IMG/VR virus record: IMGVR_UViG_3300047558_000137
Coordinates: 246,859 to 310,858 of that record
Length of the DNA: 64,000 nucleotides
Strand: one strand, 5' to 3'
DNA from: a virus
Shown: in pieces, positions 50,509 to 57,078 of the stretch
Position numbering within the stretch: the first letter of the stretch is position 1
Layout of the letters: the number at the start of each line of letters is the position of its first letter
The notes under the pieces: model-generated
What the model saw: the letters and a program-made list of their open reading frames with translations, nothing else
The model's database searches: none
Told to the model about the DNA's origin: nothing
Program-made: the position numbers and the translations under genes

Positions 50509-51135
50509 TTATGTAAGGGTTGTTAATACATATGGCCAACATAAAGGGCCGGGTTTCGTAACAGGACCGGTCAATCGTTGATGTGCTGTATACCAACTTT
50601 TATGTATTAATTTTGCATCATCAAAGTTTATATTGAAGTTACCATAATGGCATATCTGAGAATAAAGTAATTCATCTAGATCTTCAGTGTATAAATCTGC
50701 TGTATCAAGTAAAAGTCCAGAGCAATTGCCTACATATAATTCTGCTTGTTGACGTTCATACCGCACTGTATTGAAGTATAAGTTTCGATCTACATGTGTG
50801 AATTTTTTATATAAGTCTAATGTCACCAGTGGATCTGTTGGATATAAGAAATAGTTAACATTGCTATCAAATTGCCCTGGTCTATTTTCCCACCCCGGGT
50901 CAAAATTGGTATGAGCAAATTTAATCTGTTCATTTAAGACCTGTCTATACTTAAACTCATAACTAAACCAATTTTTACAGTTACGCTCTGCAGGATAAAC
51001 ATTTGACAGTATATAGTCAACTTTATCCGCAACAGGGCCACGATCAAAAAGAAGAAAACCGGGGTCGAGTAGTAGCAACCACCTTAAATGATTACCACAC
51101 CCGCCCCGGCAACTATGCACAATAGCACGATGCAT
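50509..51135 (-). CDS. hypothetical protein
   Basis: 208-aa ORF, stop/start overlap with phosphoesterase. Confidence 0.45.
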   Translation of the reverse strand: MHRAIVHSCRGGCGNHLRWLLLLDPGFLLFDRGPVADKVDYILSNVYPAERNCKNWFSYEFKYRQVLNEQIKFAHTNFDPGWENRPGQFDSNVNYFLYPTDPLVTLDLYKKFTHVDRNLYFNTVRYERQQAELYVGNCSGLLLDTADLYTEDLDELLYSQICHYGNFNINFDDAKLIHKSWYTAHQRLTGPVTKPGPLCWPYVLTTLT

Positions 51136-51740
51136 TACATTGTAGGCCCATTGCCATTACGCATACCAACTGTACCACCTTCTGCTGTAATGCGCTTGAT
51201 GACATCTTCAAACAGGATGGGAGCGAAGTCCGGGGTCTGTTCTACACACACGCAGTGGTAGCGGACATCGTTCTCATTACTGTACAAGACTTCACCGGTT
51301 TTGACATTATATCCACGCATCTTCTTTACACGATTAGTATGCAAGTGTCCGTGAATGTTCGTGCCAAAGCGGCCCAACGAAGCTTCGTGTACCGGAATAT
51401 GACTAAGAATCATTCCGTTCATTACATGGTATGCACGTAGTTCACGAAAGTATTCACGATATTCTTCATCACGAAAGATATCATGGTTGCCACGGATCAA
51501 GACTTTATCACCGTTTAGGCGGGCAAGCGTTTTCAAAGCCCGTCTATTGATAACAACATCGCCTAGGTGATAGACTTTGTCGTTGGGCCTTACACGGTCA
51601 TTCCAGGCCTTGACCATGGCTTCATCCATTTCATCCGGATCTGTCCACGGACGTATTTTTGTAACACCGTCCGCTTCAGTAAAGCGACATACACCGGCAT
51701 GGCCAAAGTGCGTATCGCTAACTAAGAATACTGCTGGCAT
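51135..51740 (-). CDS. calcineurin-like metallophosphoesterase
   Basis: DTHFGH, GDVV, GNHD, ...GHLH motifs in canonical order. Confidence 0.8.
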   Translation of the reverse strand: MPAVFLVSDTHFGHAGVCRFTEADGVTKIRPWTDPDEMDEAMVKAWNDRVRPNDKVYHLGDVVINRRALKTLARLNGDKVLIRGNHDIFRDEEYREYFRELRAYHVMNGMILSHIPVHEASLGRFGTNIHGHLHTNRVKKMRGYNVKTGEVLYSNENDVRYHCVCVEQTPDFAPILFEDVIKRITAEGGTVGMRNGNGPTM

Positions 51741-51822
51741 ATTCGCCTCCTTTCTGTTGCAATGACTTATTATAGCACAATTTTAAGTCAAAAAAAAGTA
51801 GTACTTAGGTACTACTTGTGTT

Positions 51823-51896
51823 TGGAGCGGGATAGCGGAATCGAACCGCTGACTTGAACTTGGAAGGATCTCGTTTTACCATTAAACTAATCCCGC
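51823..51896 (-). tRNA. tRNA, probably Gly(TCC); anticodon stem imperfect
   Basis: Cloverleaf with T-arm AGCGG-TTCGATT-CCGCT, acceptor GCGGGAT/ATCCCGC, encoded CCA; loop CTTCCAA but only 3/5 stem pairs. Confidence 0.6.
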
Positions 51897-51903
51897 ATAA
51901 ACT

Positions 51904-51978
51904 TGGTACCTTGTGACAGTTTCGAACTGCCGACCCTCTCGGTGTAAACGAGACGCTCTACCCCTGAGCTAACAAGGC
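51904..51978 (-). tRNA. tRNA-Val(TAC)
   Basis: GCCTTGT-TA-GCTCAGGGGTAGAGC-G-TCTCG-TTTACAC-CGAGA...TTCGAAA; CCA encoded. Confidence 0.8.
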
Positions 51979-52081
51979 AACTATTTTTTGTACTCTTGCA
52001 AGTACTGATTTCTTTTTGAAATCTTTTTATATCTACTTCCTTTGCCTTTACTACCAAAGTTTTCTGTTTGACTATGGCAAA

Positions 52082-52157
52082 TTGGAGCGGGAAAGGAGGC
52101 TCGAACTCCCGACATCTACCTTGGCAAGGTAGTGCTCTACCAACTGAGCTATTCCCG
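52082..52157 (-). tRNA. tRNA-Gly(GCC)
   Basis: GCGGGAA-TA-GCTCAGTTGGTAGAGC-A-CTACC-TTGCCAA-GGTAG...GGGAGTTCGAGCCTCCT; CCA encoded. Confidence 0.85.
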
Positions 52158-52161
52158 CATA

Positions 52162-52238
52162 TTGGTTGCAGAGGCTGGATTCGAACCAGCGGCCTCCAGG
52201 TTATGAGCCTAGCGGGATGACCAACTTCCCTACCCTGC
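52162..52238 (-). tRNA. tRNA-Met(CAT), initiator-like (C1 opposite A72)
   Basis: CGCAGGG...CTAGG-CTCATAA-CCTGG...GCTGGTTCGAATCCAGC-CTCTGCA-A-CCA; unpaired 1:72 is the bacterial initiator hallmark. Confidence 0.75.
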
Positions 52239-52246
52239 GTCAATAT

Positions 52247-55468: not shown

Positions 55469-55474
55469 ATTTAT

Positions 55475-55550
55475 TGGTGGCAAGGACTGGGGTCGAACCA
55501 GTGACACACGGATTTTCAATCCGCTGCTCTACCAACTGAGCTACATTGCC
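55475..55550 (-). tRNA. tRNA-Phe(GAA)
   Basis: GGCAATG-TA-GCTCAGTTGGTAGAGC-A-GCGGA-TTGAAAA-TCCGT...ACTGGTTCGACCCCAGT; CCA encoded. Confidence 0.8.
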
Positions 55551-55752
55551 ATATAGAAGCACTCTCAAATGCAGGCCTAGGAGGAGTCAAGCTCTGAAAC
55601 CGTTGCGTATGCATCCACTTGGGTCTCATCTCCCGCTTTGTCTTACGCCAAGAATACTTCTATATGAGCTCCACCGTTAACTGACGCTTGTCCTAGCTTT
55701 ATTTTGTGTCGGTTAATGCACGGTGGACACACATGCCGACAGATTTTTATGC

Positions 55753-55833
55753 GAACTCATTGTAGGCAGGACTCGAACCTGCAAGCGGCGACGGCTAGTC
55801 CCCGATGTCTACCAATTTCATCACTACGAGTTC
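55753..55833 (-). pseudogene. tRNA-like sequence with canonical T-arm (GCAGGTTCGAGTCCTGC) but non-canonical acceptor/anticodon geometry
   Basis: Could be a degenerate or interrupted tRNA; not foldable by hand into a standard cloverleaf. Confidence 0.3.
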
Positions 55834-56128
55834 CTGGAGTTAATTACTCCCCAGTATGGATGTTACCTGCAGATAACATTAACCATATAAAAGACAACTA
55901 CGAATATTGTGTTGCTAGCCCGGCGTTGGTCGCGAAAACCCTTTCCTTGCTACTTGGCACAATAGACTTCCAAACTACTTAGGCGCCGGCCGACGTTTTA
56001 TTTCGTAAGTTAATTGTCTTTTATATGGCGGTACATGAGTTAACCTAAAGCTAGTCTAATATCGTGGCCACAATATTTCGTCTATGTCTTAGGATATACA
56101 CGTTGGTACCTTGCGTACCTCACGCACC

Positions 56129-56207
56129 ATATGTAAACACACTGACTCTCCAGTATTGCTACCTTCACCGAGTTTGACGTCTTAGGTCGTGCAATGTGTT
56201 TGCATAT
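56129..56207 (-). repeat. copy B of the about 90-nt hairpin element, immediately 3' of tRNA-Lys(TTT)
   Basis: ATGTAAACACACT ... AATGTGTTTGCATAT, same arms as copy A. Confidence 0.55.
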
Positions 56208-56282
56208 GGTAGGACTGCCCGGACTCGAACCGGGAATTGACGGATTAAAAGTCCGCTGTGATAACCATTTCACTACAATCCC
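56207..56282 (-). tRNA. tRNA-Lys(TTT)
   Basis: GGGATTG-TA-GTGAAATGGTTATCAC-A-GCGGA-CTTTTAA-TCCGT...CCCGGTTCGAGTCCGGG; CCA encoded. Confidence 0.8.
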
Positions 56283-56286
56283 ATAT

Positions 56287-56361
56287 TGGTCCCTAACGAA
56301 GGATTCGAACCTTCAACTCGAGGATTAAGAGTCCTGTACGTTACCATTACGCCAGTTAGGG
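56287..56361 (-). tRNA. tRNA-Lys(CTT) (tentative anticodon)
   Basis: CCCTAAC-TG-GCGTAATGGTAACGT-A-CAGGA-CTCTTAA-TCCTC...GAAGGTTCGAATCCTTC-GTTAGGG-A-CCA. Confidence 0.65.
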
Positions 56362-56454
56362 TTAGTGTATTACGTTTTGTTTAACGTGCTAACCCAGACC
56401 AATACGGGATCTGAGTCAACACTAACGTTTACCACGTTTCATGTTGTTCTCCTG

Positions 56455-57078
56455 TTACATGTTTTTAAATTGAATTGTTCGCCAAGACTCAGGGTCTGGC
56501 TGCTCGTTTTCATCGTATGTCCAACCTAGTGCTTTCATCATCTTGTGCTTAACACGCAAGTTAGGAATACGAGTCTTTTCAGTGTCCTGAAAGCCCATCA
56601 TAATCCCAACTTCCGCTACTGCACCACTACGACACAAGCCAGCCATACAGTGTACTACAACACCCATTTTATTGTCAAGTGCATGTTGCAAGAGTCGCAC
56701 AATTTCTTGTGCTTGCTCATCGCTAATTTTACACTCTTCTGGGAAGTTATCCCGATCCTCAACATCCAGAAACTCAAACCTATGTGTTTCTTTAAATTTG
56801 TGTACTGGTGTGGGCCACCAGCTGGTAGCTGTATCCATGATTTGGATAAGCATACTATTCTCCCCGCAGTCATGATGAAAGCGAGCGGGAATATCGGCAG
56901 CAGCCACATTTTCGATAAAAGGCATCATACATCCTTCATTACTTGATAGAGAACAAACATTATAACACATACCAGAATTAGTACACTCATTGATGTTCTC
57001 CTTTTTGTTGGTGCCCCAGGTCGGACTCGAACCGACACGCCTCACAGCAATGGTTTCTAAGACCATCGTGGCTACCAT
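56455..57078 (-). CDS. dual-specificity (Cys-based) protein/RNA phosphatase
   Basis: Active-site VVHCMAGLCRSGAV (HCx5R P-loop) with upstream Asp; 207 aa. Confidence 0.75.
   Translation of the reverse strand: MVATMVLETIAVRRVGSSPTWGTNKKENINECTNSGMCYNVCSLSSNEGCMMPFIENVAAADIPARFHHDCGENSMLIQIMDTATSWWPTPVHKFKETHRFEFLDVEDRDNFPEECKISDEQAQEIVRLLQHALDNKMGVVVHCMAGLCRSGAVAEVGIMMGFQDTEKTRIPNLRVKHKMMKALGWTYDENEQPDPESWRTIQFKNM

Follow-up and report, generated by a model that had tools for sequence, protein, structure and literature searches.

A cysteine phosphatase and a metallophosphoesterase in a phage tRNA island as candidate RNA end-healing enzymes

Introduction

Phages counter immunity systems that cleave tRNA in ways that include the supply of tRNAs and repair of the Pnk/Rnl type, as in phage T4, in which Pnk and Rnl1 repair tRNAs and so counter the anticodon nuclease PrrC. 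Whether enzymes of such a pathway are encoded in a tRNA island of a large phage genome is the question raised by the stretch of DNA analyzed here, namely positions 246,859–310,858 of the IMG/VR virus record IMGVR_UViG_3300047558_000137 (64 kb in total; hereafter the window, to which all coordinates refer). In an original prediction, made from the sequence alone, three genes of this island were proposed to form an RNA-healing set: those of a calcineurin-like phosphoesterase, of a cysteine-based phosphatase with an HCx5R motif and of a class I S-adenosylmethionine (SAM) methyltransferase.

In this study, the families, the conservation and the gene neighbourhoods of the three proteins were analyzed. 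Gene context supports the RNA-healing idea for two of the three genes, namely those of the cysteine-based dual-specificity-type phosphatase (DSP) and of the binuclear metallophosphoesterase (MPE), the relatives of which cluster with an Rnl1-type RNA ligase and a Pnk-type kinase; the methyltransferase falls outside the set. The DSP and the MPE are proposed, with a probability of roughly one half, to be that half of a phage cassette for RNA (tRNA) repair which heals 3' ends; the cassette would have merged with the tRNA island. A cysteine phosphatase as a core component of phage RNA repair appears to be new, and no description of an RNA repair cassette with such an enzyme was found in the literature.

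Family assignments of the two phosphoesterases

The DSP (157 amino acids) is encoded at 56455–56928 on the minus strand. The frame first assigned to it, 56455–57078, overlaps a tRNA-Leu(tag) gene at 57009–57092 (minus strand; called by both ARAGORN and Rfam), which lies 81 nt upstream of the start of the DSP gene as it is now drawn. Over 100 homologues have 153–163 residues and begin with MPWIEN or MPFIEN, and the start was therefore placed at the ATG at 56928 or 56925, which is preceded by a GAAGGA site. The predicted HCx5R phosphatase thus keeps its motif and loses its upstream extension. The HCx5R(S/T) loop reads HCMAGLCRSG (H93-C94-MAGLC-R100-S101), and His93, Cys94, Arg100, Ser101 and Gly102 are invariant in an alignment of 36 sequences. 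In Pfam, the protein matched Tc-R-P (32.4 bits; cut-off 27) and, below the respective cut-offs, DSPc (26 bits) and, weakly, PTP-SAK (2.3e-4), the DSP-PTPase domain of the 'Swiss Army Knife' protein. In the literature on RNA repair and conflict systems, this name has been applied to an RNA-end phosphatase family, which at least hints that cysteine phosphatases are connected with RNA repair.

The DSP has the alpha-beta fold of the DSP and protein tyrosine phosphatase (PTP) superfamily, and its best structural matches are protein-type DSPs and archaeal PTPs. Glu64, which is Asp in most relatives, aligns with residue 63 of Tk-PTP, an Asp that we take to be the general acid; Glu65 is at least 90% conserved and Asp55 is invariant. 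From the alignment, the general acid of the DSP is probably located at Asp/Glu64–Glu65. An acid at this position would presumably suit a monoesterase with sugar hydroxyl leaving groups and not an RNA triphosphatase. A 5'-triphosphatase of the BVP/PIR1 kind, the comparison that had originally been suggested, was rejected as a candidate: the closest relationship of the DSP is not with these RNA 5'-phosphatases (BVP, PIR1 and Mce1, with an HCTHGxNRT loop and no general acid).

Homologues of the DSP were detectable in 3264 proteins, with 72–90% identity among the best 120 clusters. A search of 185,579 species genomes yielded only six short contigs, all of metagenome-assembled genomes, two of which carry the same phage cassette as described below, and a bacterial origin or context of the DSP was therefore rejected. 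The family is essentially phage-restricted.

The MPE gene (51135–51740, minus strand; 201 amino acids) is preceded by a strong ribosome-binding site, AAAGGAGG. The protein matched Metallophos in Pfam (30.6 bits; cut-off 21.5) and phrog_547, 'phosphoesterase', at 3.6e-47, and the motifs DTHFGH, GD, GNHD and HGHLH are all intact, in agreement with the calcineurin-like phosphoesterase that had been predicted. In an alignment of 52 sequences, Asp9, His11, Asp61, Asn85, His86, His114, His130, His132 and His134 are invariant or at least 90% conserved. As the AlphaFold2 model was poor (pLDDT 55), it was not used for a fold search; instead, a profile of the 52 sequences was compared with the PDB sequences. 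Aquifex aq_1665 (PDB entry 1xm7) was matched over its full length at 6e-21, and the only other matches at E ≤ 1 were GpdQ (weak), SacC and ApaH. The MPE is hence of the aq_1665/phrog_547 type. Membership of the clade of Pnkp and lambda phosphatase, the comparison proposed at the outset, was rejected, since neither lambda phosphatase nor a Pnkp phosphatase domain was matched at E ≤ 1.

The MPE has at least about 8000 homologues (11,943 representatives at 50% clustering), with 85–90% identity among the best 120 clusters. Five relatives of approximately 517 residues (P0270, P0278, P0287, P0305 and P0327) were considered as possible 'Rosetta stone' fusions; this was rejected, since the additional 330 residues are inteins (Intein_splicing and LAGLIDADG) inside the phosphoesterase domain and not kinase or ligase domains. 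An intein is unusual for a gene of accessory appearance and is consistent with strong functional constraint.

Gene clustering in related phages

The neighbourhood of the two genes was analyzed in related uncultivated phages, in a sample of 84 DSP-centred loci with dereplication at 95%; a second sample of 80 ligase-centred loci served as a reverse test (loci labelled L001–L173). In 75 of the 84 loci, or in 41 of 49 after dereplication, the DSP gene has an MPE gene at a distance of no more than 5 kb, and in approximately 35 loci the two are directly adjacent, the MPE gene starting 17–36 bp past the DSP stop codon. In two long relatives, L001 and L003, the orthologue of the window MPE follows the DSP gene after 10–15 bp (85% identity, as measured for the gene directly downstream of the DSP gene in L001), and all of the remaining neighbours differ. 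In the window, the two genes are separated by 4.7 kb that hold 12 tRNA genes, a GOLLD RNA, one conserved open reading frame (ORF) of unknown function and the orphan methyltransferase gene. Eight tRNA genes likewise separate DSP from MPE in L007, L008, L075 and L077, the last two of which carry two copies of the DSP gene and both of the MPE subtypes described below.

A search of the related loci with the 'RNA ligase' that adjoins the MPE homologue of Vibrio phage AG74 revealed an RNA ligase gene directly downstream of DSP–MPE in 20 loci. ORF maps and tblastn outlined a recurrent cassette of DSP, MPE, an HD protein (in some loci), RNA ligase, an 86-residue ORF and a P-loop kinase, a set that would be complete for both the healing and the sealing of RNA. 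In 52 of the 84 loci, including loci with the MPE subtype of the window, the kinase gene is no more than 5 kb away from that of the DSP, and the same is true of the ligase in 20 of the 84. Starting from the ligase, genes for MPE (75), DSP (64), kinase (55) and the HD protein (35) were found within 5 kb among the 80 loci. The ligase belongs to RNA_lig_T4_1 (48 bits; cut-off 28.3), and the sole PDB match of its profile is T4 RNA ligase 1 (PDB entry 2c5u; 1.8e-13). The kinase, a stand-alone domain of 152–158 residues, scored 66 bits with AAA_33, and its profile matched Pnkp1 (5e-11), T4 polynucleotide kinase (2e-9) and the kinase domain of CthPnkp (2.5e-8). No RtcB was found in the related loci.

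The ligase-centred cassettes occur in 22 different gene orders. As the proximity of the genes has outlasted both the shuffling of their order and the replacement of their flanks, the clustering is likely to be under selection and not merely inherited. Furthermore, at least five tRNA genes are located within 10 kb in 18 of the 21 DSP-centred loci that are at least 15 kb in length. The window genes belong to the same families as the cassette genes: the DSP is 55–78% identical to the DSPs of ligase-containing cassettes, and the MPE is orthologous (76–88%) to that of cassettes that consist of DSP, MPE and kinase. Two paralogous subtypes of the MPE were distinguished, both of the aq_1665 type and approximately 33% identical to each other: MPE_A, which is the subtype of the window (200 amino acids), and MPE_B (182 amino acids). 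The ligase co-occurs with MPE_B in 51 of 54 dereplicated loci, and in the 20 DSP-centred loci that have a ligase the MPE is of this subtype throughout.

The MPE family is also present in 489 cultured phage records, and most of those listed are large phages. A DSP homologue was found in one cultured phage, the Synechococcus cyanophage BUCT-ZZ01, in which homologues of DSP, MPE and kinase are located within 7.7 kb. Independent lineages provide further cases: the MPE homologue lies 1.7–3.5 kb from RtcB in CcrColossus, Brevundimonas phage Bambus and Erythrobacter phage L02, and next to an Rnl1-like ligase and a P-loop ATPase in Vibrio phage AG74, where NAD-salvage genes are also adjacent. The homologue of Cronobacter phage S13 is located among tRNA genes near a CCA-adding enzyme, and that of Cr30 adjoins tRNA genes.

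The methyltransferase

The third gene, at 54831–55385, encodes a class I SAM methyltransferase of 184 amino acids, as originally predicted (Methyltransf_23, 42.7 bits; cut-off 27). It is wedged between tRNA-Arg and tRNA-Leu genes on the opposite, plus strand. It had been described as the only plus-strand gene of the island, but an ORF at 57107–57661 is also on the plus strand and is conserved in the relatives L007–L009. In a search of 5.8 billion proteins, the sole homologue of the methyltransferase was the protein itself, apart from two weak matches to motif I, and none of the 84 related loci carries the gene. The gene has a GC content of 0.373 and no Shine–Dalgarno sequence. A Hen1-like role, as had been envisaged, was rejected: at E ≤ 1 no Hen1 was matched in the PDB, but only motif I of small-molecule methyltransferases. 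Since the protein has no homologues and no Hen1 match and its gene is missing in the relatives, low in GC and without a Shine–Dalgarno sequence, it was dropped from the set. It is a lineage-specific orphan outside the conserved module. Two more class I methyltransferases are encoded in the window, both in a sugar-modification cluster, and such enzymes are accordingly common in this genome.

Proposed function and alternatives

The analysis shows to which families the proteins belong, that the DSP and MPE genes are linked and that in relatives they cluster with kinase and ligase genes; RNA ends as substrates and the division of labour between the two enzymes are inferred from this. In the proposed reaction, the binuclear MPE would open the cyclic phosphodiester at a cleaved RNA end, and the DSP would remove the remaining 2'- or 3'-phosphomonoester via a phosphate intermediate on Cys94, leaving a 2',3'-diol end. 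In the related phages, the adjacent Pnk-type kinase would phosphorylate the 5'-OH and the adjacent Rnl1-type ligase would seal the break. In the present phage, a reduced version that has no ligase would operate, and sealing would fall to a ligase from another part of the genome or to the host; alternatively, the 3'-OH end could be used for re-addition of CCA with no sealing. There is a published precedent for the first step (PMC2190708), the 2',3'-cyclic phosphodiesterase activity of metallophosphoesterases of RNA repair enzymes, with CthPnkp and lambda phosphatase as examples.

A number of observations weigh against this proposal, the first of which concern the missing partners. Neither a kinase nor an RNA ligase was found in the 64-kb window by tblastn with the proteins of the relatives or by PHROG and Pfam scans of all sizeable ORFs, as the original prediction had already noted for obvious cases, and the HD protein and a second MPE are likewise absent from the window. 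Among the related loci, the ligase co-occurs with MPE_A in none of 30 dereplicated loci (the kinase in 10 of the 30), and the DSP–MPE_A pair may thus do something other than the full cassette. Because of this ligase-less MPE_A architecture, and because the kinase is also missing within 64 kb, confidence that the window genes themselves repair RNA is just moderate. In addition, the solved structure nearest to the MPE, 1xm7, is to our knowledge that of a protein with no known function.

The surroundings of the MPE homologues also speak in part for another substrate. The association of the family with RNA repair recurs but is not universal: in Bacillus phage Chotacabras the homologue is located in a DnaB/Mre11 neighbourhood, in Vibrio phage D13, Streptomyces phage Francob and Pseudomonas phage Lu11 the surroundings are uninformative, and in several phages the homologue is surrounded by NAD-salvage genes. 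The pair might degrade small phosphorylated compounds with a signalling or toxic action, such as cyclic nucleotides, 2',3'-cyclic nucleoside monophosphates or ADP-ribose phosphates from host defences or NAD-dependent RNA processing, and not act on polynucleotide ends. MPE homologues lie 1–5 kb from NAD-salvage genes in Vibrio phage AG74, Staphylococcus phage SaGU1, CcrColossus and Erythrobacter phage L02, the second-best PDB matches of the MPE profile are a glycerophosphodiesterase and an Ap4A hydrolase, and the ligase-less MPE_A architecture would fit a function that has no sealing step. Furthermore, rhodanese-phosphatase and calcineurin-like phosphatases have been predicted to process ADP-ribose derivatives in some conflict systems (PMC9503650). 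However, scans of the window revealed no NAD-salvage, Macro, Nudix or Tpt1 gene, tblastn of the related loci with the Prs of AG74 was negative, and the DSP family is accompanied most consistently by the polynucleotide kinase and the RNA ligase, which makes a role in metabolite turnover decidedly improbable. In the four cultured lineages with NAD-salvage genes nearby (L086, L088, L094 and L096), these genes are Prs, NadV, NMNAT or NAPRT, and the same stretch also holds RtcB in L086 and L088 and an Rnl1-like ligase in L096, which suggests a recurrent neighbourhood of RNA repair and NAD reconstitution.

The structural matches of the DSP raise the question of whether the substrates are proteins. 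Both enzymes might be protein phosphatases, a DSP acting on Tyr, Ser or Thr and a Ser/Thr metallophosphatase, that counteract kinase signalling of the host or abortive infection based on kinases, the position of their genes in the tRNA island, and beside repair genes in relatives, being incidental. In addition to the protein-type DSPs and archaeal PTPs that match best, the viral models that follow the 60%-identical DSP of an uncultured Caudovirales phage are DSPs of phiKZ-like jumbo phages, one of which bears the annotation of a virion structural protein. For MPE homologues, 'serine/threonine phosphatase' is a frequent annotation, and the homologue of Enterococcus phage EFGrKN adjoins another such phosphatase. 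The profile of the MPE, however, matched aq_1665 and, weakly, the diesterase GpdQ, and no lambda phosphatase or other member of the PPP family at E ≤ 1; neither the window nor the loci examined showed a protein-type kinase, and the clustering of the DSP with ligase and kinase over 22 variants of gene order would be hard to explain. The protein-phosphatase alternative is therefore considered unlikely.

Finally, nearly all of the loci with a DSP belong to a single phage clade, and part of the co-localization is thus inherited. In the extreme case there would be no functional set, but only unrelated accessory genes in a recombination-prone tRNA island, with the adjacency of DSP and MPE as mere inherited synteny; the 4.7 kb between the two genes and the mosaic composition of the island (two HNH ORFs, the orphan methyltransferase, a radical SAM gene and ORFs of unknown function) point in this direction. 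This explanation holds for the methyltransferase but not for the DSP and MPE: the pair persists while the flanks in L001, L003 and the window differ completely, the cassette genes have kept their proximity while their order was shuffled, and their conservation (85–90% for the MPE and 72–90% for the DSP, each over more than 100 clusters) is far above that of typical accessory genes. For the pair, the absence of any functional connection is very improbable.

If RNA end healing is indeed the function of the DSP and MPE, a function would be assigned to two abundant, strongly conserved and generically annotated phage families, and, were the DSP an RNA-end phosphatase, cysteinyl-phosphate chemistry would join the 3'-end-healing toolbox as a new catalytic class. 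The MPE_A (no ligase) and MPE_B (ligase) architectures, which nearly exclude each other, would form a natural experiment, in which healing only could be compared with healing and sealing. A broader and distinctly speculative version of the proposal may also be formulated. In it, the phage-restricted DSP would be an unrecognized RNA 2'/3'-phosphate healing enzyme that acts jointly with an aq_1665-type MPE, the two substituting for the HAD phosphatase of T4 Pnk; in a clade of phages with genomes of 200–370 kb, the repair genes, an array of 25–35 tRNA genes and the GOLLD nanocage RNA might together constitute a 'translation rescue' island, and the ligase-less DSP–MPE_A pair could be a healing-only device that restores, for example, the 3'-OH of tRNA so that CCA can be added or a ligase of the host can act.

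GOLLD RNA and the tRNA island

A full-length GOLLD RNA is encoded at 53602–54063 on the minus strand (Rfam RF02032; 191.7 bits, gathering threshold 150; E = 1.8e-52; model positions 1–416 of 416). It is placed between the two phosphoesterase genes, inside the interval of the original prediction, by which it was missed, and a tRNA-Arg(tct) gene at 53929–54000 is embedded in it. The ORF-free stretch that extends to 54736 may be the variable 5' domain of the RNA. With nhmmer, GOLLD homologues were found in 19 related loci, always on the strand of the repair cassette and 2–8 kb from it; in L007 and L008, the RNA likewise lies between DSP and MPE_A. The location of GOLLD between the two genes with an embedded tRNA, here and in several relatives, ties the RNA to a testable pathway, and a translation-rescue island, if real, would be its first functional neighbourhood. 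In a recent structural paper on GOLLD (PMC12286853), RNA repair and co-location with repair genes are not mentioned.

ARAGORN located 27 tRNA genes, all on the minus strand, at 51823–63191, and the Rfam tRNA model confirmed 26 of them. As predicted, the two phosphoesterase genes sit among the tRNAs: 12 of the 27 are placed between them (51823–56361, minus strand), in the order Gly, Val, Gly, Met, Cys, Arg, Arg, Leu, Phe, Ala(agc), Lys and Lys, and 11 of the 12 were confirmed by Rfam. The exception, tRNA-Ala at 55758–55830 (minus strand), has the unusual anticodon AGC and is the sole one of the 27 below the Rfam gathering threshold; it may have degenerated or have been called falsely. A terminator-like hairpin at 51796–51817 (minus strand), with a 9-bp stem followed by a run of T, separates tRNA-Gly from the MPE gene and matches the terminator consensus only. 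The conserved ORF of unknown function between the two genes (52247–52882, minus strand) matched phrog_25230 at 2.9e-6 and has tblastn matches with 38–76% identity in many related loci (L006–L083); it is placed outside the proposed module.

Upstream of the DSP gene, the island holds further protein genes on the minus strand. A radical SAM protein of 390 amino acids is encoded between tRNA genes at 58534–59706; homologues with 65–66% identity are present in L006 and L009, and it matched twitch-domain, viperin-like and peptide-maturase families weakly and nothing more strongly. Two ORFs for HNH-type endonucleases of 128 amino acids each (59901–60287 and 60828–61214) are interspersed with the tRNA genes and are likely to be homing endonucleases that add to the mosaicism of the island. 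A GGQ-domain protein (62725–63111; 128 amino acids), related to class I release factors, ArfB and PrfH, matched prfA at 4e-17, PrfH at 3e-13 and RF-1 in Pfam; it is possibly a ribosome-rescue factor or a peptidyl-tRNA hydrolase. The relative L003 carries a tmRNA at 19996–20412.

Other features of the window

The window is part of a large phage genome, nearly all genes of which are on the minus strand in this stretch, and no cultured phage was close to it in a comparison at the DNA level. A tail fibre of 1512 amino acids, a DnaB helicase, a primase, a helicase, an exonuclease and GroEL are also encoded. Immediately downstream of the MPE gene are genes for a TRAP-transporter solute-binding protein, DctP (49029–49985, minus strand; 1.6e-40), and for a small relative of the C-terminal domain of malonyl-CoA decarboxylase (50026–50463, minus strand); in relatives, a TctC-type binding protein takes the place of DctP. 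The sugar-modification cluster (40300–47900) comprises a zinc-finger C-methyltransferase (41582–42790), glycosyltransferases of families 9, 17 and 34, a nucleotide-sugar epimerase (44668–45708) and a Methyltransf_24 protein (46624–47208, plus strand).

Comparison with known systems

The cluster of the relatives resembles the T4 Pnk/Rnl1 system in that it combines an Rnl1-family ligase with a Pnk-type 5'-kinase and would follow the same logic of healing, then sealing, against host defence. It differs in that the kinase of the relatives has no fused HAD 3'-phosphatase, the place of which is taken by an aq_1665-type MPE, a cysteine phosphatase and sometimes an HD protein; in the window, only the DSP and MPE are present. 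As in the bacterial Pnkp–Hen1 and Pnkp1–Rnl–Hen1 systems, a binuclear metallophosphoesterase would be the healing enzyme for 2',3'-phosphates, and the best PDB match of the kinase of the relatives is the Pnkp1 kinase domain. Unlike in those systems, there is no fused kinase–phosphatase–ligase polypeptide and no Hen1, the MPE is of another clade and a cysteine phosphatase is added.

In a survey of jumbo phages (Iyer et al., 2021; PMC7824862), tRNA arrays were described together with Rnl1, Rnl2 or RtcB ligases, polynucleotide kinases and phosphoesterases (2H, cRec and HAD), and calcineurin-like and HD phosphatases were predicted in a few RNA repair systems. The words PTP and rhodanese do not occur in that survey, it describes no cassette of which a cysteine phosphatase is the most constant member, and the clade analyzed here is uncultivated.

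Among the individual families, the MPE corresponds to the aq_1665 or COG4186-like metallophosphoesterases (1xm7; phrog_547) over the full length of its profile and in all metal-binding motifs; some relatives of the window MPE differ in that they carry an intein. The DSP is just 13–20% identical to atypical DSPs and archaeal PTPs (Tk-PTP, SsoPTP, DUSP28 and baculovirus PTP-2), from which it also differs in being phage-restricted and in having RNA-repair genes as partners. It belongs to the same superfamily as the RNA 5'-tri- and diphosphatases (baculovirus BVP and PIR1/DUSP11), which provide a precedent for the action of a cysteine phosphatase on RNA ends.

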